DNA of 64,000 nt, from assembly GCF_011745625.1 (NCBI RefSeq), contig NW_027191465.1, positions 372,001 through 436,000 on the forward strand, given 5' to 3'. This document shows, in pieces, positions 3,528 to 26,546 of the stretch. Each line of letters opens with the position of its first letter. The first letter of the stretch is position 1. The DNA is from Cladosporium halotolerans (Eukaryota). Made by a program: the position numbers and the translations under genes. Under the pieces are notes generated by a model, which saw nothing but the letters and a program-made list of their open reading frames with translations, was not told the origin of the DNA and searched no databases.

Positions 3528-3859
3528 GGTGAAATTGCTGTGCTGGGTGCGGAACTCGGTTTCCAGTGCTGGATTTCTGGTGCTGTGCTTGTGACTGGGT
3601 AGGCACATGAGCAGCAGCTGCCACACTCTTGTATACTCGTTAATCACCCGTCCAGGTAATATTGTTAGCTGACAAGGGGTGAATGAGGTCAACGCAAACA
3701 GCACGTGTTTGTCAGATTGGTCTGTCTTCACCATGAAGTTACAGCAGAACGACAAGCCGACGAGGCCATTTTAAGCATGTCGGCGCCCCGTTGTGTCATG
3801 ATCGATGAACCCGTCGACAGAAAGCTCTTGCGATATCTGGTTGCAGAGTATACCTGCCA

Positions 3860-4270
3860 TCAAGCTTTGACGAGCTCCCAATCTGCGTCCAACCTCTCTT
3901 CCTCCTCCCGGTGATGCTCCTCCTCGAGCGCCTGGACCTCTTCCATCGTGACATGCACCAATGGCTCGTCAACACGAGAGATATCCGGCAAATGATCGCT
4001 GCCATGGTAGTGAAGTGTACCACCTTTCTCTTCGAAATGGGTCGTGCGTAGTATGGCGCCTCTTCGGTCGACAGAGACATGCGTCCATGTTCCAAGGTCG
4101 TCGTGGAGATGATGAGAAATTGCAATCTTCTAGCTGTCGTCGCCAGTGAGCGTGAGTGCGTGACTATCTGATGGCGAAGGCTCTTTGAAGCTTGCAAATT
4201 TCTCCGTGAATGATTTGATGCATTTCATGGTTGCTTTCGCCTTCTGGAATAGGCCAGATGTTTGAGACAT
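3860..4270 (-). pseudogene. Paralog of 3108-3527 with an in-frame TAG at codon 47
   Basis: ATG at 4270, TAG at 4132-4130; the same frame continues to TGA at 3862-3860. The C-terminal half (LGTWTHVSVDRRGAI...PDISRVDEPLVHVTMEEVQAL...DADWELV) aligns with LTTWTNLCVDRKGAV...PNIPRVGEPIVKITLKEVETL...DAEWEFV. TATATAA lies at 4361-4355. Confidence 0.75.
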
Positions 4271-4818
4271 GGTTTGTGAGGGTGATTGGCAGGTTGATTT
4301 GGGTGGGTGTCGTTACAGAGGCCAAAGATTGCTTGATGTGCTTCTGAGATGCAGTTATATACCAAAGGTATATTGCCAGTCAATGAATGAGTAAAAGGTG
4401 ACTGTATTCAGATCATGGACATGAACTTCGCGCCGCTTGGAAATACTACCTTCACCAATGAGAGAAGGAGTGTCACTCATCGATGTTGGTATAGGCGACC
4501 TCGAGATCGAGACAACAGAAGATAGTATGGGGCATGAGCATTGCATGGTCAAGGTAGACAAACTGCATCTTCAACGACGAAAAAACTCACTTCCTGGGCA
4601 CAGTTAGAGGAACAGTAGGCACTCAGCACTGTATTTGAATTTGCCGTTAATTTTTTGGGTGCGATTCACGACTCGGACAAATTGATATGGTCGGACGGAA
4701 TTTGTATGACTGCGTTTCCATGTGTACGATTACGTCGGGTCGCAAGCATAAACAAGCAATTGCATGCTTGATGGCTCATAGTATCCACTTCGACTGTGCG
4801 CACCAGTCAACGAGGCAA

Positions 4819-5853
4819 TTAGAAGACGGTAGCACCGCCGTCAATCACGAAATCAGCGCCGTTAATGTAAGTGCCGGCGCGGCTCGCAAGAAGCACACAA
4901 ACACCATCAAGCTCTCCCACAGCTCCCATCCTTCCCATCGGGTTCCTGCTGGCCCAGCTCTGTCGCATTTCCTCCAATCCATCTCCGGCATTGAGGATAG
5001 TATCCATGTAGCCAGGCGAAATGGAGTTCACACGAATGCCCGAGCTCGCCCACTCCGCAGCGAGCGACGACTTCAACGCCACAATCGCCGCCTTCGAAAC
5101 GTTGTAAGCCGCCTGCGGCTGAGGGAAGTTGACACGGTGCGCGGATATTGAAGCCGTCAGAGTGATGCTGCGATTCGGACTCGGGTTGGCCGCCATGTGT
5201 TTCGCCGCGGCTTGTGCGCAGAGGAAAGAGCCCGTCGAGTTCACGTCGATGGTCTTGCGCCACTGCACGTCTGTCATGGAGATGGCTGGTACGCAGCCGA
5301 CGATGCCGGCAAAACAGAACAGGTGATCCAGAGAACCCAGCGTTGAAACTGTGGAATTGACGCCTTCTTGCACGGATTCGGCATCAGTGACGTCCACAGC
5401 GATGCCGAAGACACGTGTGCCTGGGTGTTCGGCGGCGAGAGCAGCGATGGCTGCTTGAGAGCTGCGGAGGGTTGATTCAAGATCCCAGAGGCAGATTCCA
5501 GAGGCTCCGTGTTCTAGTAGAGCACGGGCACAGGATAGGCCTAGGGTGCCAGCGCCGCCAGTCACTGGAGATCGAATGAGTTAGACGGTCTGGAAAATCG
5601 AAGGATCTCGCATGTGACAAATCACGTGAATGTTCATTCTCGTCTTGTACAGGCGGTCTGAGAGCAAGGAGTCAAAACGCAAAGATCACGTACCAACAGC
5701 ATTGCCTTCGACGGCGAAACGAGCGATGGCTCTGCCTTCGGCGTTAAGATAATGCGGTAATGGCGCAGGCGGTGCAGTCAGAGATGCTGCTGAGCCATCA
5801 GACAATTCCATAAAGGGAATTTGCCTGGTAGTAAGGTTGTCGCGGTCAGACAT
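4819..5853 (-). CDS. Short-chain dehydrogenase/reductase (D-arabinitol/sorbose reductase-like)
   Basis: Two exons with an intron at ~5567-5693. TGGAGTLG Rossmann motif, YNVSK catalytic motif, PQPQAAYN, NSISPGYMDT and final IDGG. Confidence 0.9.
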
Positions 5854-15324: not shown

Positions 15325-18304
15325 ATGCATCAACACATCCGCTCTCCACCCCGGAGCAGCTCCGCCGCCGGCAACCCAGCAACGAATCCCGACAGGACGA
15401 ACAACCAGAGAGATCAAGGAGGGCTGCCGCAGCGGACGAGATCGAGCGTCGATCTGGCGTCGTACACCGAGAGGGCTGCGGCCGCGGCCGCCGCGGGCAG
15501 CTCGCTGCAGCAAGATAAGGATCACACGAAGTTGAACCAGATTATACAGGTGCGTTTTGGAAAGAAATGTGAATTGGAAAGAGACGGACAAACATGCTGA
15601 CGGAGGCTGTGACAGAACTTCCACACCAAGGCGGCGCTGACGATCTGTTCTGCGCGAGCCAACTTGCCGCCGGCGTACAATAAGGATGGGGATTTGAGGC
15701 AGAATAAATGGGTAAGTTCTTCTTGATTTTCCAGGAAAGGCATGTCTTCTTTGGGCCAAAAACGACAACGACGATATATGGAGCTTGAATGCGAAAGACT
15801 CGGATGCTGCATATTGCGGAAACTCAAGGCGACATTATATGGGCATGTTAAGGAAACGATGGCGATGATACTGTACCGCGGCTCAAGCAATCTGAGCTCC
15901 AGACTGGCTCAGAAGTGTGGCAGTCGTCTGATGTCGGAAGATCAATAGCCGGCACATCTGGATATCCTGTCTAATCCCTGGCGCGTCAAAGTCGACGTGC
16001 TGGTGAACTTGCAGCCACGTCTTGCCGAAACTCGTCATATCTCGTTTATCGAGCTGGACATGGTGGCCCTTTGAACCATTTCCGGGACTGAACAATCGCT
16101 TACGAGCGGCCGATCGGAATCCAGCACTCCACATGTCAATCTGTAACGAGCACCGGCCGGCGCCAGTAAAGTCAATCATTGAGGCCTTTCTTGATTCTTG
16201 CTGGAAGTCGATCCGTGATGATACTCCCACAGCCCTGAACTTGTCGATCAACTTGCTCCTCAGAGCTCTTGGGACGAGCGTCTAGGACTTTCACGTCACG
16301 GACACTGCTACTGGTTTCAGCCTCTATGCCAGAAAGAGCAACGAGCCTGTTGGGTGATCCTTCGGTGGCCTGCCGTTTCTTTGTCCTTGCACATAGTTGC
16401 TTGCTTCTCTTGCTTGTTTGCTGCCTTTGAGTGTAGTCTGTGCCTATGAGCAATCCGCTGACATTCTCTTTCCACAGTTCAACATCGTGCTTGATGAGAC
16501 CGATGTCCTCGTCGATGACCTGCAGGAGTGGAGGCGCCCAGATCTGAGTGATGAGCCACCGCTGCCTCTAGTTGTCGAAGTGTACGTTGATACGTCTAAT
16601 CTCACCCAAAACCAGTCGCTCGTCATCGTTGATGATAACGGCAAGCACTGGGATGTGGCAGACTCAATACCCCCAGAGTCCAGTTCGAGATCCAACAGGG
16701 CTGGTGGGCGGTACTTCGAGGTGATGTTGGAGCGGTGGACGATTGAGTTGGGCGACTTGAGCCGATACAAGGCTTCTCAGCTCAACGATCAGCTGCCAAA
16801 CGTGTACAAGAAGGGTGTGCTTCTCTTCAGGTCGCTGTACACATTTGCACGATTCCTTCCTGCGTGGAAGTTGCACAAGAGGTTGAGTCGGCAGCCGAGC
16901 AATGCCCAGCCGCTGAAGTTGCGATATCGTATACGGCAAGGACGGCCAGGGGGTGCCACGCGGCAATCAAGAGAGGCACTGAGCACGCCTCTCTGCCCTT
17001 CCGATCGCAGCAGTAACACTGCCGCCGAACACCACAGCTTTGAGCCGTTGTTGTGCTCTGCAGGACCGCTAGCAATCTCCGTGGACTACCGCACCAACAC
17101 AGACCTCACGGTGGCAGACGCGGAGGCGCTGCTCAGCTCCAGATTCGCAGGGCTCGATGCAGGCCTGTCTGCTCGCCCTCTTGGCGGTCGCTCTCTTCCT
17201 GGAGGGCATCATTATCCCTCTGCTGCGGATGACAGCAGCTCGAGCCTTGGAGTCGCTGGTGGTAGCAGCCGCGCAGGCGCTCGAGTAGCCGGTGGTGGAG
17301 CGTATGGGAGCCTGGGGACTTTCCACATGACTGGAAAGCGCGAGTCCCCCGTCTCAGCGCTCCGCCATCGCGCTGTCTCCGGCGCCAGCGACGACGCACC
17401 GACTTTGGACAGGAAGGTAACACCGCAATCAATACCAACCTCGTCCGCGGCAATGGACTACCTCAAGAATCCGCCCTTCAAGGCGGGCTCCGTTGCCTCT
17501 TCACCTCGCACCACCACCGCCGCCTCGCCTTCGTCTGCACCTCGTCCCTCTCCCCTCTCCGGCACATCTGCCCATTCGAAGCGTCTGTCGCTGAACACAC
17601 TACCACAACAAGCACTACGCAACCCGGGAGGCATCCCCGCAGACACCGCCATCGCCTCCTCCGGTTCTACTTCACCCAAGCCCGCCCCAGTCCATCGCTA
17701 CAGCAGCAGTTTCGCCGGTCGTAAGCGCTGGACCAGCACCTCACAAAGCAGCCGAGCCGGTGAGAGCGCCACCAGCAGCGGCCGCGCGAGCACCTCAAGC
17801 AAAGAGAAATCCGGCCAGCTCGCTCCCGAACAAGCATCAGGCACGCCCGGCAGCTCAGGCAGCGCGCGAACCGACGAAGACGACATCGCGGCCTTCATCT
17901 CCACCGTTGAGCGCGCCAAAGACCTCAAAGCCTTCTCCGCCCGCAAACCCGCCCCGCACAACACCGTCGTCAACCTCAGCAAGTTCCGCAACATGACACT
18001 GGCCAGCAGCGAGCTCGCCGACGAGATGAGCTCCTCCAGCCTCGTGCAGACCTCCTCTCTCACGCCGCCGTCCCGCCGTCTGTCGAACGTGCCGGGCCTG
18101 TCGACCTCGTCTTCCCCGAACCGCGCTCAGCCTCACGCACCCCACGTCCGCTCCCGCCTGTCGACGCAGAGCATCGCCGAGGAGATCGGGTCGGAGAAGA
18201 ACCGCAGACCCGAGCGCGAAGTCGAAGAAGAAGACGAAGACGTCGGCGAGGAGGAGAGCGACGACGACGAGCCGTTTATCTTCCAGCAGGACAACATCCT
18301 GTGA
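15325..18304 (+). CDS. ATG13: Autophagy-related protein 13
   Basis: Three exons (introns ~15550-15615 and 15712-16477). HORMA-domain segments KLNQIIQNFHTKAA, NKWFNIVLDETD, LERWTIEL, LPNVYKKGVLLFRSLYTFARFLPAWK, followed by a Ser-rich disordered tail. Confidence 0.92.
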
Positions 18305-18904
18305 GTCTCGATCAGCGGATCGATCGCAATCAAGCATTGGCAGAAAGATTCGCAATGCGTTTTTGGCGTTTTAGTTCAACCCTGATTCAAGGGAGGGAGG
18401 GAAGGAAGCGTGGAGTTTCGTTTGATGGGATTTGCTACTTTTCTTTTCGCCTTTCGCCCGAGGTCTCTGATCTCTGGGTTTGCTTCGTTTTCTCGCCCTT
18501 GCTTTACTACAATAACATTGGCTCCCCGCGTGGAAGGGGATCGCAACATTTGGACGGGACGTGCATACGCCGTATAGACTGAACGATACAGGAGTTACTC
18601 TGAGCTTAGGTATATCAAATGCTGATGATGACTTGCTCTCCCTCCTTTTTTTTTTCTTTTGTCAGAGGAGTGCCTGCAGGATCAAGTGATTCGTGATAAT
18701 CTTATGAATCGGACACCACCTCAAGACGTTCGACGCGCCATAGACTGGCGACATCGTTAAGCATCTTCGGATGCTCTTCGCTCGGAACCGCGGCTGGTTC
18801 CGATGCTTCTGGAATCTCTCTACCTAGGTACTAGGATCCTGCACGCGCGTCGATCGACCTGAATCAGACATGCAGCTAGTTCCCAAGGACCCAAAAAGGC
18901 AAAA

Positions 18905-19023
18905 ACATACAACAGGCGGGATTTCCAGATGGTCACCCATCCTAGTACTAGTCGCCCGGTTCAGTGCTTATATCTGGCAGAGCGGACGGGATGCCCAGTT
19001 TTCACTGACCTATGGTCGTATGT
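18905..19023 (-). rRNA. Dispersed 5S rRNA gene
   Basis: 119 nt ACATACGACCATAGG...AGTACTAGGATGGGTGACC...GTTGTATGT with complementary termini, followed by a T-run Pol III terminator. Confidence 0.95.
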
Positions 19024-19413
19024 GTCCTTTCATTGATAGAACGTGATCATGATTCTGTTGTTGATCTTAAAATCTCACTATCCGACGGGAAAAGCGTGGT
19101 TTCATCCGGCGACTATGATCACGGAGACCGCCTCTGAGAAGGAGCTTCCCGAATAAGTCTCACAGCGCGATGCCCAATTTCCGTTTTGCCGCATGTCTGT
19201 ATATTTTTCCCAGTGGAACCTTTCTCGTGACGCATGTCCTGCATGATGTCTTCCTTCGTCCGAAGGTATACTATCCGTCACTATATCAGCGAGTGAGGCA
19301 CAAAAAAACGCAAGCGTGTGCTCAGAACATTCTGCGTGGATGAAAGACTGATTTTCACACGAAGCCTCCAATTCCCTGTCCGTCCAGGCTGTGAAGACTA
19401 ATGGCACAAGTCG

Positions 19414-22400
19414 TCATCGCACTCCGTTTTCTCTGACAGTTAGTAATCGTTTTCTCTGTGTGAGTACGAGTAGGAGCAGCTGTCTTTGATATTTTCGGAG
19501 CGAGCTTTCTTTGTCTTCACCTTCGGCAGAGTCGTGTGCATATGCATCGCCGAACTTGTGGAGAAGTAGTTCCACCAGTCCCTTACTTGTCAATTTCTCA
19601 GCGATGTTGAGGGCAGCCATAAGATCTTGTCCTCCAAAGTCAACACCGGCATTGACTAGCAACTCTACGATTGCCACGAGACCTGTAACGCAAGCAGCTT
19701 GGAGAGCATTTTCATATTTTCCGCCTTTGGCACTACCGTCGGCTCCTTTCGCAAGCAGTGTCCTTGCGATCTTTTCGTGGCCCCCAGCACACGCTGCTTG
19801 TAGCGAGTTTCCCCAGTACCCCCCCTGAGCGTTGACATCGGCATCCTTGCCAAGCAGAAATTCCGTGATCTTCGCATGGCCCTTAGCACAGGCTGCTTGC
19901 AGCGCATTACCGTAGTAGCCGCCTTGTACGTTGGTTCCGGCGCCCTTGTCTAGCAGAAGTTCTGTGATTTTCTCATGGCCTTGAGCACAAGCAGCCTGCA
20001 GAGCGTTGTTGTAGTAGCCACCTTGCGAACTGACCTGGGCACCCTTTCCAAGCAGAAGCTCTACAATCCTTCCATAGCCTCCAGCACAAGCTGCCTGAAG
20101 GGCATATCCGTAGTGGCCTGCTTGATCGTTAACCCCGGCACCCCGGTCGAGCAAGATCTCTGTTAGCTTTTCATGACCAAGGGTTGAGGTTATGTACAGA
20201 ATAGATACATTTTCCTCTGCTCGCCAGATAGTCGGATTCTGGAAAGCTCCTCGAGCATTGACTGCAGCACCCTTATCAAGGAGCATTTCTGCCACCCTCT
20301 GATGACCGCCAGCGCATGCAGCCTGCAGAGCATTACCGTATTTTCGACCTTGAGCATTGACTTCGGCACCTTGGTCTAGCAAAAGCTGAACGGCTTCTCC
20401 GTTACCCTTCTCTGAACATGATATGAGCATAGTCTCTGAACCTCCTTCTGACTTGATGGATATACCACTTTCGATCAGTAGTTTTGCCGATTCCAAAGCT
20501 CGCTTTGCTAATGCAACCCCCAGAAGCTTTCTCTGTTCTTCCTGTGAATGGTGTGCGATTGCACCGTGTTTGAGAATGACTCCGACGACTTCGGCGTTCC
20601 GCCCATGGATGGCAGCACGCAAGATTGTACGATGCCGCTCATATGATGAGAAAAACTCTGCATTTCGTTGCAGCTCGATGTTGAGAAGACCTGGTGCGCC
20701 TTTTTCAGTGAAGACGTACGCGCGTGTCACAGATGAGGAATATTGGCGAACCTCATACTTTTCAAACATGTTGTTGAGGGTAACCCAAGTTGCTAAAGGG
20801 AAAGACCATGCGATCTCATTCTGGTGAATGTTTCTGCTGCATATCTTTTCAGAGTGGAAGATCACGTTCTCTACAGCGTACCCAAGAAATGGATAGAGTC
20901 TGGCAATCTGATCGCGCAGGTCTCTCGCCTCTTTTGTCTTAGCAGTTGGGAGAGGATCGGATAAAGATAGCTGCCGGGTTGTGTTCTCTGAAATAGCTCC
21001 AAGGCAGCATTGCCTGACGTACTCGTGGCTCGAACCTTCCAGATCCTGACTAAGGTCTCGCGCAATTTGGTCATGGCCTTGCTTCATCCTCAATTTCTGT
21101 GCCAGTGTCCTGAATCCGGTATCGCGGAGGTAGTCTCGTACAGACTCATGTATGAATTGGACCGTTGCATGCTTGCCCCTTGTCGTTTCAGCAAGCCCCT
21201 TGGATGAGTTTAGCAGGAACCTCTTTGCGATTTCTGAGTCAGGTTCGTCACCGATGTTAGCCCCTTGGAGTTTATCGGGAGGAGTGCTCATGACAGCATG
21301 ATATAACTCCTTGCAGTCAAGTGGACGTTTTGCGAACATGATCCATTGCAGTGTTGGGATAAGATAGGTATCTTCTTGCGTCCCTTGGACTAAGATGTCC
21401 TGGAATAGCTTATCCAGATCATCTGGAATCTCTTCTAATCGATCCTTGATTTTGAAGGCATGTCCATGGTCGCTGTCCGTGTTGAGAATTTGTACAACAA
21501 GAACAACCCAGAGAAAAATGCCTGATGCTCGTTGCCGGATTTTTGTAGCCATCTCGGACTTCAAGCGAGTCGAAACTTTCAGCTTGTTTTGTATGTAAGC
21601 CGAGATATCGTCTTCGTGGCCCTCTTGATCTTCAAGAACGAGTTCTTGACAGGCTTTCATCGAAACGTGGGGATAATGGCGACTCGAGAAGCATATACGG
21701 AAGTTGAGATGCTCCAGAATAGCCGATTCAGTAATTTCCTCGAAGGCTTCGATCATACACCGAATGTCTGCTTCGTTGCATTCGTCTAAGGCGTCAATAT
21801 AGCATGTCAAGCTATTCTCCTTGAGAGACATGACTGCTTCGCGAGACAAGGTACTCAGCAGTCTGACTGGCCAAGTACTGCGATTTCTCTGCCCGCCCAG
21901 TGTTTTCTGAAGCCCTGGGATCTTTTCCATCATTTGATAGAGAAGTGACCGGTACATGCCTTCAGTAGATTTCTCCAGGTCGCTACCTCGCGCGTTGAAG
22001 AAGAAAGCAATTATGGTAGTCTCTTCTGAGTGTTTTCGAGCATGGTCGACTGCATGTTTCATCAATGTAGATTTTCCCACTGCAGGTTTGCCTTTGATCC
22101 ATAGAAAGCCATTGTTGTCTGATCTCATGTCTCTATTGACCCAATCTCTGTATGTCTCCCTTCCGAACAGCCACTGACATGTTTTCGTACAAGCCGGGCT
22201 AATGTTGAAATATCGGTCGTTCATCTGTTCAAATTGGAGTGAGTCGAAAGCTTCGCTGCTCTCGGCCGAGTCATATGATGGGCGCTCCGCAGGCTTCATC
22301 TGGTTTGCATACTGGTAGACGGGGGCGTAGTATTCGTGATGTTGAAAGCTATCCCCGAGGTGCGCACGAGCGTAGCCTTGCACCTGGCTATTGTTATAGG

Positions 22401-22524
22401 TACGCTGAGTTTGCTCATCTCTTCGCCTTTTCGCTCCTGAAAACTCGTTTTTGGTCAAGACATGTTTGCGAGGTGTGGTGTCCCTTGGAGGCGTCTGCAA
22501 TGGTTGAGATGTAGGGCTGGTCAT
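19414..22524 (-). CDS. Fungal NLR-like protein: N-terminal amyloid-like motif + NACHT NTPase + ankyrin repeats
   Basis: Intronless, 1036 aa. Walker A WIKGKPAVGKSTLMK, Walker B CYIDALDEC, SSRHYP, ASGIFLWVVLVV, VQFIHESVRDYL, and about 8 ankyrin repeats (NALQAAC..GH). Confidence 0.92.
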   Translation of the reverse strand: MTSPTSQPLQTPPRDTTPRKHVLTKNEFSGAKRRRDEQTQRTYNNSQVQGYARAHLGDSFQHHEYYAPVYQYANQMKPAERPSYDSAESSEAFDSLQFEQMNDRYFNISPACTKTCQWLFGRETYRDWVNRDMRSDNNGFLWIKGKPAVGKSTLMKHAVDHARKHSEETTIIAFFFNARGSDLEKSTEGMYRSLLYQMMEKIPGLQKTLGGQRNRSTWPVRLLSTLSREAVMSLKENSLTCYIDALDECNEADIRCMIEAFEEITESAILEHLNFRICFSSRHYPHVSMKACQELVLEDQEGHEDDISAYIQNKLKVSTRLKSEMATKIRQRASGIFLWVVLVVQILNTDSDHGHAFKIKDRLEEIPDDLDKLFQDILVQGTQEDTYLIPTLQWIMFAKRPLDCKELYHAVMSTPPDKLQGANIGDEPDSEIAKRFLLNSSKGLAETTRGKHATVQFIHESVRDYLRDTGFRTLAQKLRMKQGHDQIARDLSQDLEGSSHEYVRQCCLGAISENTTRQLSLSDPLPTAKTKEARDLRDQIARLYPFLGYAVENVIFHSEKICSRNIHQNEIAWSFPLATWVTLNNMFEKYEVRQYSSSVTRAYVFTEKGAPGLLNIELQRNAEFFSSYERHRTILRAAIHGRNAEVVGVILKHGAIAHHSQEEQRKLLGVALAKRALESAKLLIESGISIKSEGGSETMLISCSEKGNGEAVQLLLDQGAEVNAQGRKYGNALQAACAGGHQRVAEMLLDKGAAVNARGAFQNPTIWRAEENVSILYITSTLGHEKLTEILLDRGAGVNDQAGHYGYALQAACAGGYGRIVELLLGKGAQVSSQGGYYNNALQAACAQGHEKITELLLDKGAGTNVQGGYYGNALQAACAKGHAKITEFLLGKDADVNAQGGYWGNSLQAACAGGHEKIARTLLAKGADGSAKGGKYENALQAACVTGLVAIVELLVNAGVDFGGQDLMAALNIAEKLTSKGLVELLLHKFGDAYAHDSAEGEDKESSLRKYQRQLLLLVLTQRKRLLTVRENGVR
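19640..20420 (-). repeat. Tandem 99-nt ankyrin-coding repeats
   Basis: 33-aa unit GGxYxNALQAACAxGHxxIxELLLxKGA repeated six times, plus divergent units. Confidence 0.85.
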
Positions 22525-22776
22525 TTCAAGGTTCCGTAAAAATGACTGTTTGCATCAGCAAGGTCGTTTCCCTCGGTCTGTGTACTGTGGTTGCAAATCG
22601 GATAGAGATGGAAGCAAGAGGCAAAAATGCATCTTGGGCCAGCTCAGCCGCATCTCGCCTACAGCGCGAATCAGATGGGTGTCGCTTATAATAGATTGGG
22701 CTAACCTGAGATTCGACGCTCGGAAGCAGCTTTGTTTAGATCTTGTGGCTAAGAAGAAGGGGAGATTGGGGGTGTT

Positions 22777-22815
22777 GGATGGCATGCCCAATTTTCACTG
22801 ACCTATAGTAGTGTG
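22777..22815 (-). pseudogene. Degenerate 5'-terminal fragment of 5S rRNA
   Basis: 22784-22815 (atgcccaattttcactgacctatagtagtgtg) matches 18991-19022 (atgcccagttttcactgacctatggtcgtatg) at 28/32 positions in the same orientation. Confidence 0.8.
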
Positions 22816-23076
22816 AATTCTACTCCCATACTCCATACAATATGGGGGTTTCAAACATGCGATAGGCTGAGGCCACATCCGTCAACTTTAGCTCACATAT
22901 CATGTCGGCAATCCACGAATCTGCAGACCTGAGCGGGCTCGGAAAGCACTTTTCACCTCGTCTCGCGTTGACATGCAGATTCGACAATGACAGGACTTGC
23001 GTGGTCAATAATAGGAAGGTCTCTTTCGTCGGTCGACCTCAATGCAGAATCTAGACACTCCCGCCGCATCAACCAT

Positions 23077-24939
23077 CTACAGGGCTTTAGCCGTGCCGTG
23101 CAAAGCCTCGCCCACGTACTTGGCCAGCGCAATCATCTTCTCCTCCTGTAACCTGCGACCGACCAACTGCACGCTCACGTGAGCGCCGTCGTAAATTTCG
23201 GGGTCATCTGTAAATCAAGAGTCAGTCTCACATTGCCATCAACCGATATTCGAAAACGAGAAACTTACAATTATCCTGCGTCTCCTGATCAACCTCATCA
23301 ACCGCCTTGAAACTCTCGTTCTTCTTGTCGACGTTCTTATCCACCTGCGTAACCGGCACGACAACACTCGTGTAATCCAGCACATTGACGAAGCTCGAGT
23401 ACGTCAAATACGTGTACTTCGCCGGCCGCGCCGCCGCGAACGGCGCCAGTGGGCTGATCACCGCGTCCACGGGCCTGCCGGTCCCCGTCAACTCCGCGGT
23501 CGAGTTCCAGTACTCCATGTACGCCTTCTGCGCCTCGCGCTTCGCGACGTTGACGCGCATGATGTCGCTCGCGGTTTTCTGCGGCTCGTCGGCGGATATG
23601 AGCTGGGGAGCGGGTTCTTCGCCTGAGAGGGCGAAGGCGGCGCGCGCGTCGGCGCCGCCGTCGAAGGCGTAGATTTCGGAGGCAAGGGAGGCGAGGTGCG
23701 AGTGTGGGGGGTTGGGGTTCCAGTCGATTACTGTGTGGCCGCGGGCGCGGAGGGTGGCGGCGACGAGGTTCAGGGCGCGGGTTACGGGCGGGTGAGGGGC
23801 GCAGGAGCCGTCGTGGGAGAGGAGGGCGAAGGAGAGGGGGGTGCTGGTGCGGGAGTGGAGGTCGGAGATGGCGAGGTCGGCGGTTGGGCGCCAAGGGATG
23901 TCGTGCACGAGGGGGTCGTGGAGCCAGGGGGAGGTGCTGAGGATGGCTTGCGTGAGGAGTTTGAGGGCGCCGGGGGTGGTGGCCAGGGGGCCCACGACGG
24001 AGAGGATGCTGTTTTGCCCGTCCCAGCTGTTGGCCATGCCTTCGTAGGGGAGGCGGCCGGCGGACGGGCGCAGGCCGTAGAGGCCGTTGAAGGCGGCGGG
24101 AATCCTGATGGAGCCACCTGGGGTGGTGTGAGTATGTTGGTTCTGCAGGAGACAAGGTCATGATTGACACACCAATATCAGTGCCAAAGCCAGCACAGCT
24201 ACCGCGAAGTCCGATCAAGGCTCCCTCGCCGCCTGATGAGCCGCCGGAGCTGAGATTGCGGTTCTTGGGGTTCCAGGTATATCCGATAACGTTGTTGACG
24301 GTCTCACCACACATCAATGTGTGAGGGACCGAAGTCTTGCAGTATAGGGTGGCACCAAGCTTGCGCAACTCGCTGACCATCTCGCTCTCAAAAGTGCGCT
24401 CCTTACCGGTGTTCTTCTGGCCCTGGAAGTTGCCGATCCAGCCAACATATCCCATATGAGTGTCCACGCTGTGACAAGTTAGGCAGGCTCCAGACTCAGC
24501 ACCACAGTCCCTCAGATTGGACCTACCCTTTGACATGGAACTGATCTTTAAGACTGACAGGCAGGCCGTGGAGAGCTCCGATCGGCTTCTTGTGCTCCTT
24601 GAAGTAGTTGTCCGTTGTCTCGGCCTGGGCAATAGCTTGATCGAAGAAGATCTCGTGCAAGCAGTTGACGAGCTGGTGCGCGATCGACGCGCGGTGGCAG
24701 AACGCCTTCGCAACCTCTACAGCCGTCCATTGCCCGCTAGTAGTCTTCTCGACAATCCCCACGGCGTCTGTCTCGGTGATCTCAATCTCCTTCTTATCTA
24801 AGAACTGCTGGATATAGGCGCCGGTGACATCGCGCTGCTTGTCCGCGGACGGTATGTCGGAGATGCGCCATTCCTGTGGGATCAGCGACAAGACACTGTC
24901 GGCTTTGTTCTGCGCGGTCTGCTTCCAGTCCCCTGCCAT
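23077..24939 (-). CDS. Amidase signature family enzyme (acetamidase/general amidase)
   Basis: Four exons. LHGLPVSLKDQF (catalytic Lys), GGSSGGEGALI, GTDIGGSIRIPAAFNG, and final VQLVGRRLQEEK. Confidence 0.93.
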
Positions 24940-26546
24940 GGTGTTGCTTTCTTCGGGTCGCTGAATGTTGGCCTGGATCTTTCGCCAGTCGCTAGGCTTG
25001 ATGTGCTTTTTGAACGGGGACTCTTGGGCCTTTTCCATAGGGAGAACAATATAGATGGAAGAGAGATCCAACCTACCTTCTACTTCGAGTGAAACAGACA
25101 GGCAGCCCTCAGGTTTGAGCTGTTAGCTTATCTGAAGGTTGTGTTGTCGACCTTCCCTTTGCAGAGAGAAGGCGGGGACGGCACTTGGTGAGGGGAGGGG
25201 TTGTGCTCCGGTCATCGGAGGTGCTGAAGCTGAGCTCCTTTTAGCCGTCTTGACGACTTCCTGACTTGAACGCAGCAACATCGAACACAATGCAGTGGAG
25301 AGAGATTGTCCGAATGCACGAATGGCGCCTCGGGTGTCTTCAGCTGTGCATGCGGGTTGAACAATAATTCAAGCAGCACTTGTGAAAGCAGAGTCCGAGT
25401 GTTGCTTTGGCCAAGCTCCTCTCCCCCATGAAGCTGTCCTGTCGCGGCAGAGCGAGCTCCACACTGCATCATCGTTGCAGGGTCGCCCTTCGGCGGGAGT
25501 AAGGAGTGCCATTACGTGAAGTCTTCGGAGGGACGTACATCCGCCTCCAGCCAGGTGAGCGACGAGCCGGGTCCGAGAAGGCATAACTCATACCTCTCCA
25601 GAGTTTTCGCATATGCTGTGCGACGTTGATCTTTGCACAGCTCTCCGGGGGCCATCCCAAGATCTAACATGAAGCTGTTAATCATCGTGCATGCATCTGC
25701 CGAGCCGGGCGCATCGGACGTGTTTCTCACCGTCTAGATGCCCATTTGCATCTTTCATCGAGCCACGCGCGTACTAGCATGGTGGTACCGGGATGACATG
25801 GACGTGCACGCGTTCGTCTCAGAATCGCGGAAATAACGTTACTTGCATGCGCACGTGCACGGAGTTTGCGCTCTGAGGATCAATTGGCACCTCACGCTCG
25901 GGACAAGCTCGCAGCCACCAAAAGGCTTGGTCAATAACAATCCCCAGAGACATTCCTGGAGAGCCTCGGCCTGCCAGCCGTATGCACAATCGCATAGCGT
26001 TACCCGCGAATCATGAATGGCTTGGCCATCTACCGAACGCCCGTGATGAGGCTCTTCTCCACGATTCGTGCCGTGGGGGCCCCACGATAGGATTGACATC
26101 GACCGATGACACGGCCTCCCCATAGCACTCCCTCCGTCAGCCCGCGTGCTCCACAAGCCTTTCGTCCGCCAATCGTCTGGTTGGCTCGATGATTCTTCGG
26201 GCAGGCGATCGTCTCTATGGACCCGCGCGGGAGACCTGAGAACGACGAACTCTGGAGAGTGTGGGGATGATGATGGAACTGGCTGAGGGGAAGGTTGATG
26301 ATCGACGGCTCGGCCGCGTCAGAATGGAATAGCAGCAACGGTGAAGAGCCGCATGAGCTTCAATGGCTGTGTCAATCTCTGCTTGGTTGTTTCGGAGCCG
26401 GATGTTCTTTAGACTGGGTGTGCCTCGTCTTCGTTCCGTCGACGTCCTGCTCATCGCGCCGCACGTGCGACACCATATCGCATTGGACATCCCATCCGCC
26501 CAAACTCCTTACTGACCACTGAGTACGCCGTGCCATCGTCACCACC

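Follow-up and report, generated by a model that had tools for sequence, protein, structure and literature searches.

Here we examine a 64,000-nucleotide (nt) stretch of the genome of the fungus Cladosporium halotolerans (contig NW_027191465.1, positions 372,001 to 436,000 of the forward strand; hereafter the window, at its full length), in which a block of accessory DNA lies between the conserved genes ATG13 and amidase. The block holds an intronless gene for a NOD-like receptor (NLR) of the NACHT–ankyrin type, bracketed by a stump of a 5S ribosomal RNA (rRNA) gene on one side and a complete 5S rRNA gene on the other, with all three on one strand. An earlier note on this DNA, made from its letters alone, had described exactly this order, and Rfam, alignment and Pfam confirm it. 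The block is absent from related fungi, and the stump breaks off at a motif that matches published direct repeats of Starships, tyrosine-recombinase elements of fungi; we tentatively propose that the locus is what remains of a Starship-type strike on a 5S gene. The features of the locus are as follows, with those of the block first and the flanks after them.

18904–19023 (−), complete 5S rRNA gene; Rfam RF00001, 78.8 bits, model positions 1–120, with a T-run after it
22777–22815 (−), 5′ stump of a 5S gene; 5S nt 2–40, 33 of 39 identical, cut after TCCCGTCC, which has decayed here to TGCCATCC
19414–22524 (−), intronless NACHT–ankyrin NLR open reading frame (ORF) of 1036 amino acids (aa); Pfam matches, tandem repeats, homologues and low-depth RNA contigs
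22525–22776 (−), spacer of 252 nt separating the stump from the start codon of the NLR; presumed to serve the NLR as promoter and 5′ untranslated region (UTR)
19024–19413 (−), spacer of 390 nt between the NLR stop codon and the intact 5S gene; an extra TCCCGTC at 19084–19090 and a non-significant 5S-like stretch at 19153–19202
18584–23076 (no strand), lineage-specific segment of ~4.5 kb; blastn of the window against six related loci (L001–L006), and composition
18552–18583 (+), short conserved element 3′ of the ATG13 stop codon; common to relatives and the last ancestral DNA on that side
16397–18304 (+), last large exon of ATG13; Pfam PF10033, spliced RNA contigs, conserved flank
23077–25038 (−), amidase gene; Pfam PF01425, three RNA-supported introns, stop codon at 23077–23079, conserved flank

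Between the two 5S copies lie 3.8 kb with a single protein gene, and the whole lineage-specific segment covers 4.5 kb. The GC content of the block is ~0.49, against 0.56 for the window.

The intact 5S gene and its truncated copy

The complete 5S gene, at 78.8 bits, stands well clear of the Rfam gathering score of 38 and is full length with respect to RF00001. It is the only RNA family at gathering level in the 64-kb window, which also contains no tRNA genes. The earlier note had further claimed a degenerate 5S fragment comprising the first ~35–40 nt, and this fragment proves to be real: the ungapped alignment of 5S nt 2–40 with positions 22815–22777 scores 54, above the maximum of 46 (mean 25.8) obtained with shuffled sequences. 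A 23-mer from the 5′ part of the gene recurs once in the window, at 22784–22806 (−) with one mismatch, where 0.00 recurrences are expected (100 shuffles), and a repeat search lists the same pair of gene and stump. The covariance model reports no 5S match at E ≤ 10 in 22300–23300, the stump being too short for the model.

Beyond nt 40 the similarity ends. Nucleotides 41–120 of the 5S gene were undetected in the 252 nt past the stump (null scores attain the observed one in 8–56% of trials), the 3′ half of the gene occurs nowhere in the 64-kb window, and no 5S piece other than the gene and the stump was found there. The stump is a true truncation – a 5S pseudogene in which nt 2–40 are present and the remainder is absent – and it lacks the 5S internal control region. 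Its divergence from the intact gene is 15%.

Several further candidates for 5S-derived sequence were set aside. The stretch at 19153–19202 gives an alignment score of 25, equal to the shuffle mean, and the 598 bp that lie downstream of that intact gene held nothing significant. Comparison by eye of the DNA past the stump with the consensus of loose contig ends from one sequencing run (X3, see below) yielded just an 8-mer in common. A 20-mer from the 5′ part of the 5S gene had two matches in a collection of genome contigs, both bacterial, about the number estimated from the size of the collection.

Four public runs (X1, X3, X15 and X17, the last consisting of spliced RNA contigs) were compared with the window over positions 15500–26500. 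Tens of 5S genes are present, as seen from loose contig ends at 18892 and 19024; the contigs of the other copies part from the locus directly outside the gene, and the copies are thus dispersed, with unrelated flanks. They differ from the local gene at positions 18924, 18940, 18941, 18972 and 18974 (5S nt 100, 84, 83, 52 and 50), five internal differences that make the local gene a singleton variant. The intact 5S is thus perhaps a minor variant or one in slight decay, and no RNA contig carrying it was seen.

One RNA contig from X17 joins 5S nt 1–35 to at least 255 unrelated letters, with a loose end at 18989, and comes from the same species. It comes from a further stump, or else from a 5S gene with an internal deletion, and is transcribed in both cases; the first of its unrelated letters resemble the 5S 3′ end. 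Further loose ends lie at 18979 and 18984 (8 letters) and, in X3, at 18989 (13 letters), and perhaps mark diverged 5S paralogues rather than stumps; a long extension of unrelated sequence is confined to the X17 contig.

The block is an accessory insertion in a core region

Scanning metagenome contigs with ATG13 returned six loci (L001–L006). In four of these (L001–L004), with ~74–75% nucleotide identity to the window in coding DNA, ATG13 and amidase are adjacent in every case; two of the four (L002 and L003) are the same in sequence, so that the set represents about three taxa. The spacer between the two genes measures 1.1–1.8 kb in these contigs as against 4.8 kb in the window, and consists of a minisatellite of ~100–120-bp units, an array conserved across the three or so taxa (e.g. 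L003:11602–12725) of which the window holds nothing. What the window spacer does share with those of the relatives is just the ~30-bp element at 18552–18583, downstream of ATG13. No 5S gene at Rfam gathering level was found in L001–L005, and neither 5S pieces (blastn-short) nor the NLR (tblastn) in any of the six loci.

The closest relative found is L005, whose ATG13 is 82% identical to that of the window at the nucleotide level. Downstream of ATG13, in the slot taken here by the NLR, it carries a 792-aa ORF with a HET (heterokaryon incompatibility) domain (L005:1062–3440, +; E 7e-26). No amidase occurs within 5.4 kb in this contig, and a further ORF of 511 aa (3844–5379, −) has no Pfam family.

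With no counterpart in the spacers of the relatives, the ~4.5 kb from 18584 to 23076 are lineage-specific, and the ATG13–amidase slot is variable. Compared with related fungi the block is an insertion, as the earlier note had supposed, and an accessory one among core genes: it is missing from all four syntenic contigs, and the fifth locus has a HET gene instead. The relatives lack the block, yet they are too diverged to define its ends. A second expectation fared less well, namely that an empty site with one 5S gene and no NLR would be found; the four syntenic contigs have neither 5S nor NLR.

X15, probably the run from which the window derives, matches it exactly, with a 132-kb contig that extends from 18995 across the NLR and the stump; its depth in the block is 34 and in the flanks 32, and the block is therefore single-copy. 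X3 yielded a 4402-nt contig over 18997–23071 with 55 differences, so that a strain ~1.3% diverged also has the NLR and the position of the stump. In X1, exact pieces of the NLR occur at flank depth. None of the four runs contained a contig joining across the block as an empty site would. The depth of the block in X3 is 12.6 against ~26–60 in the flanks, whose contigs are ~3% diverged where the block is ~1.3% diverged; a more abundant strain lacking the block is conceivable on these figures, which without a bridging contig are not evidence for one. As we read it, the block is today a fixed part of the chromosome, present once and immobile.

A weakly transcribed NACHT–ankyrin receptor gene

The protein gene of the block belongs, by its predicted domains, to the fast-turnover class of fungal non-self-recognition receptors, and is an intact, weakly transcribed NACHT–ankyrin member of that class. 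Pfam places an NPHP3_N/NACHT domain at residues 115–282 (E 4.9e-32), and a Walker A motif, GKPAVGKST, can be read in the translation. Ankyrin repeats (E 2.9e-36) follow as tandem units with a period of 99 nt, and this period and the Ank_2 and Ank matches both bear out the repeats. The ORF has in this way the architecture of fungal NLRs, a NACHT NTPase domain in the centre and superstructure-forming repeats at the C-terminus. RNA depth over the gene in X17 is 0–3, as against ~100 for ATG13 and amidase.

Residues 1–115 match no Pfam family at E ≤ 10, and none of the effector or signalling domains known from this end of fungal NLRs (HET, HeLo, Goodbye, SesA, PNP_UDP or an amyloid motif) was recognised there. 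The locus shares with other fungal NACHT–ankyrin NLRs the NPHP3_N NACHT domain, the tandem 33-aa ankyrin repeats, the rapid turnover and the lineage-specific presence, but differs from them at this N-terminus, where a short motif alone is held in common with homologues of ~50% identity. This motif, QRTYxN..ARAHxGDSxQHxEY, lies at residues ~39–60 (window 22345–22410, −) and recurs in two such homologues (P0006 and P0100). It bears a loose resemblance to the amyloid-type signalling motifs, likewise short, that some fungal NLRs have at the N-terminus; no nearby partner gene carries it.

The gene is odd in composition. Its GC content at third codon positions (GC3), 0.49, is below that of every other ORF tested (0.57–0.875; 12 ORFs in all). 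Repeat-induced point mutation (RIP) was considered as a cause of the low GC and rejected, as the indices (TpA/ApT 0.60; (CpA+TpG)/(ApC+GpT) 1.39) carry no RIP signature. The closest homologue is the copy from the strain seen in X3 (P0001), with 914 of 937 residues identical (98%). The next best are at most 54% identical and come from metagenome proteins, the best named one being from Cladosporium inversicolor at 50%. Judged from these protein comparisons, the NLR is a lineage-specific member of a large family and not a recent transfer from a distant taxon.

Mobile-element features of the window

Starships are defined by a DUF3435 captain gene at their 5′ end and often carry NLRs (PMC9156397, PMC11162782, PMC12153272). 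The definition of Gluck-Thaler et al. 2022 also covers giant size with many cargo genes, and direct repeats or target-site duplications around a resolvable insertion site that is empty in other genomes. 5S rDNA accounts for 23% of 222 curated Starship insertion sites in these accounts, which distinguish at least five internal 5S target sites with direct repeats of 6–16 bp and report that the 5S gene is broken up by the insertion. Among the four conserved Starship cargo genes are NLRs with NACHT and Ank domains, and cargo is said to outlive the degradation of the element (PMC9156397). The connection drawn in the earlier note has a basis in the literature as cited: NLRs are typical Starship cargo (PMC9156397), and some families target 5S (PMC11162782).

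The 37 largest ORFs of the window are ordinary core genes (NADH dehydrogenase 30-kDa subunit, RING/RRM, ATG13, amidase, MFS transporter, Yju2, Rad4, P450 and others), and Pfam finds among them no DUF3435 captain, DUF3723, ferric reductase (FRE), patatin or transposase. Of 34 short ORFs from the flanks of the island, 32 have no Pfam match, and two have weak ones (E 0.043 and 0.098) that we take as chance; the latter is from a short ORF partly inside 19024–19413, a spacer in which no Pfam family reached 0.01. ORFs of the other spacer, 22525–22776, gave no Pfam matches. No captain was found in either set of ORFs, in keeping with the earlier note. A repeat search found neither terminal inverted repeats (TIRs) nor target-site duplications (TSDs) beyond the 5S homology.

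The break in the stump and the origin of the block

What directs attention to Starships is the position at which the stump ends. The motif TCCCGTCC occupies nt 33–40 of the window's 5S gene, and the similarity of the stump to that gene stops at nt 40, the last base of the motif. The upstream junction of an insertion by such a recombinase element would have this appearance. CCCG is the core motif of the Arwing family, whose sites are for the most part in 5S rDNA (PMC11162782); many Fusarium Starships are given with tcccgtc, cccgtc or cccgtcc as their direct repeat, and one of these elements, fuscul1_s05160, is assigned to fam09, that is, Arwing (Tables S1 and S7 of PMC11162782). The mapping of these repeats onto 5S nt 33–40 is our own, by comparison of strings. 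On this basis the break favours, in a suggestive rather than a strong way, the action of a recombinase.

The coincidence should be read with some care. The published 5S target sites number at least five, and a break placed at random would fall within 1 nt of one of them in ~10–20% of cases. The motif is found in both 5S copies, but solely as part of their homology. It also occurs by chance at 18552–18559, within the conserved UTR element, and an extra TCCCGTC lies at 19084–19090 (−), 61 nt upstream of the intact 5S gene and in the orientation of the 5S motif. Nothing 5S-like follows this extra copy, which was discarded as a 5S remnant, and the two occurrences together illustrate that such motif coincidences do arise.

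We propose, tentatively, that the block is the immobile relic of a Starship-type strike on a 5S gene, in which the NLR is either cargo that survived or a neighbour. In this lineage ~4.5 kb, comprising the NLR, the whole 5S gene and the stump, would have been added to the ATG13–amidase slot. Of these, the stump would be the 5′ end of a once complete 5S gene, broken directly after TCCCGTCC, where tyrosine recombinases of the Arwing type cut and join. First, a Starship-type element would have struck the 5S gene; second, most of the element, captain included, would have been lost, for example by recombination between 5S copies; third, the NLR and an intact 5S gene would have stayed behind. In a possible additional step, a 5S gene carried as cargo could have recombined with the right junction and so removed the captain. 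The recombinase origin of the break and the deletions are steps that we infer; the anatomy of the locus, its absence from relatives, its odd composition, its single-copy status and the position of the break are matters of observation.

Break site, type of cargo, odd composition and lineage-specific presence together make a Starship-type relic the best single reading. The X17 contig with 5S nt 1–35 adds to this at least one other stump broken in the same motif, if a stump it is, and the NLR, whose homologues beyond the strain copy reach 54% at most, combines the lowest GC3 with the lack of any RIP signature. The locus resembles the 5S-targeting Starships (Arwing, Voyager and Enterprise/Osiris) in several respects: these insert at a specific motif inside the 5S gene and leave stumps of it behind, the Arwing direct repeat (T)CCCGTC(C) corresponds to the end of the stump, and the elements often carry NACHT–ankyrin or HET NLRs and appear as presence/absence blocks in syntenic regions. 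It differs from them in having no DUF3435, DUF3723, FRE or patatin-like phospholipase (PLP) gene and in measuring 3.8–4.5 kb, with one protein gene, where published elements are giants of ~15–700 kb with many cargo genes. Degraded Starship regions of Macrophomina phaseolina (‘Derelict’) offer a parallel: in these regions, which overlap accessory-gene hotspots, cargo persists after loss of the captain.

Several points weigh against a Starship relic. Canonical insertion predicts a 3′ 5S stump (nt 34/40–120) at the far end, where we find a whole 5S gene, and at least one extra, unobserved step is needed to account for it. The empty sites of the relatives contain no 5S, and no clean empty site was found. 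The absence of captain, other Starship genes, transposase, TIRs and TSDs from the ORFs and repeats searched, and the frequency with which random breaks would meet a published target, belong here too. The published rule for degraded Starships, and so for the ‘Derelict’ regions, asks for at least three matches to DUF3723, FRE, PLP and NLR in the absence of a captain (PMC9156397); the locus offers one of the four, the NLR, and falls outside the published definitions of intact and degraded Starships alike. The earlier claim of a site-specific insertion into a 5S gene is borne out in part: the stump does end at a string listed as an Arwing repeat, and no TIRs were found. There is no sign at the locus of present mobility or of a new mechanism.

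Alternative explanations

Nearly as likely, and likewise no better than possible, is an origin in ordinary birth-and-death debris: a truncated 5S pseudogene, or the breakpoint of a segmental insertion within a 5S gene, with the NLR gained separately and the bracket a coincidence. Such truncated copies are reportedly common in filamentous fungi: pseudogenes make up 18–83% of their 5S sequences, and many of these are truncated (Rooney and Ward 2005, cited in PMC5555474). Fungal NLRs are described as outpacing other genes in turnover and as associated with transposable elements (PMC13449251). The slot in L005 holds its HET gene without any 5S piece, and the 5S-free sites of the other relatives, like the lack of a mobile-element gene among the window ORFs, are what such a history would leave. 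At 15% divergence the stump may long predate or postdate the NLR. Like the truncated pseudogenes of filamentous ascomycetes, it is a partial copy among dispersed 5S genes with unrelated flanks; it differs from them in being paired with a co-oriented whole 5S around an accessory gene and in ending at a recombinase repeat. Against this reading, two co-oriented 5S sequences within 3.8 kb, exactly bracketing the only accessory gene of a housekeeping region, amount to more order than chance would supply; the 64 kb hold no other piece of 5S, and the break coincides with a published recombinase repeat.

A more elaborate possibility, and an improbable one, is a captain-less cassette of ~3.79 kb (18991–22776) that has 5S nt 1–33 at one end, integrates at TCCCGTCC, rebuilds the 5S gene and displaces the stump, being mobilised in trans. 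The geometry fits exactly, in the succession of stump (nt 2–40), cargo and whole 5S and in the position of TCCCGTCC in both copies; no 3′ stump is required or found, and a diverged stump beside a preserved whole gene is what the scheme would produce. Bacterial islands that target tRNA genes have such an arrangement, with attL and attR ends and a restored target; islands of this type depend on a site-specific integrase, their own or one acting in trans, and use one target repeatedly at different loci. The locus resembles them in having a partial copy of a small-RNA gene on one side of the cargo and the whole gene on the other, and differs in that the window contains no integrase, that the 5′ rather than the 3′ end is duplicated and that the host is a eukaryote, with mobility conjectural. 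An empty site with a lone 5S gene, however, was not found; the block is single-copy (in X15, by depth), with no recombinase in the window and no terminal repeats; a further ~320 and ~260 bp of non-conserved DNA lie beyond the bracket; and the 5S-targeting Starships described in the sources cited above disrupt their target rather than restore it. The att-like, target-restoring, non-autonomous cassette put forward in the earlier note is for these reasons a conjecture. By analogy with the bacterial islands, the 3.79 kb between the two TCCCGTCC positions might be pictured as their eukaryotic counterpart, mobilised in trans by a Starship-type recombinase and moving single immune-receptor genes among dispersed 5S loci, an idea to which we attach still less weight than to the cassette as such.

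Homology could also have done the work of a recombinase. A circle or segment carrying the NLR and a 5S gene would have recombined with a resident 5S to leave two direct 5S copies around the cargo, one of which would later have lost nt 41–120. Co-oriented 5S sequences do flank the cargo, and tens of dispersed 5S copies with unrelated flanks would provide plentiful patches of homology. The scheme requires a resident 5S gene, which is missing in the relatives, and a separate deletion ending exactly at nt 40, and it has no direct evidence on its side; we hold it to be doubtful, on a par with the cassette. Least probable of all is an RNA-mediated chimera, in which a reverse transcriptase switching from NLR mRNA to 5S rRNA at nt 40 would have made an intronless retrocopy headed by 5S nt 1–40: the stump opens with the bases that begin the 5S transcript and the NLR is intronless, co-oriented and 252 nt downstream, but no poly(A) tract follows the NLR, there is no target-site duplication and the whole 5S gene is left unexplained.

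Implications

If the stump is a recombinase scar, the locus displays the remnant of a Starship-type event after the element itself has gone, with 39 nt as its sole trace, and a single immune-receptor-like gene established for good among housekeeping genes. Stumps of 5S genes could then be used across whole genomes as an inexpensive sign of past Starship activity and of how accessory NLR and HET genes arose. Nothing about the locus would be remarkable if the stump were just an ordinary pseudogene. Occupied by an NLR here and by a HET gene in another lineage, the ATG13–amidase slot offers, on a small scale, a natural case of a site where non-self-recognition genes land repeatedly.

Minor observations on the amidase gene

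Within the amidase gene, the stretch 23600–23999 has a GC content of 0.72 and a GC skew of +0.48. One RNA contig over the gene has a 1-nt deletion at 23911, and loose ends occur at 23906.

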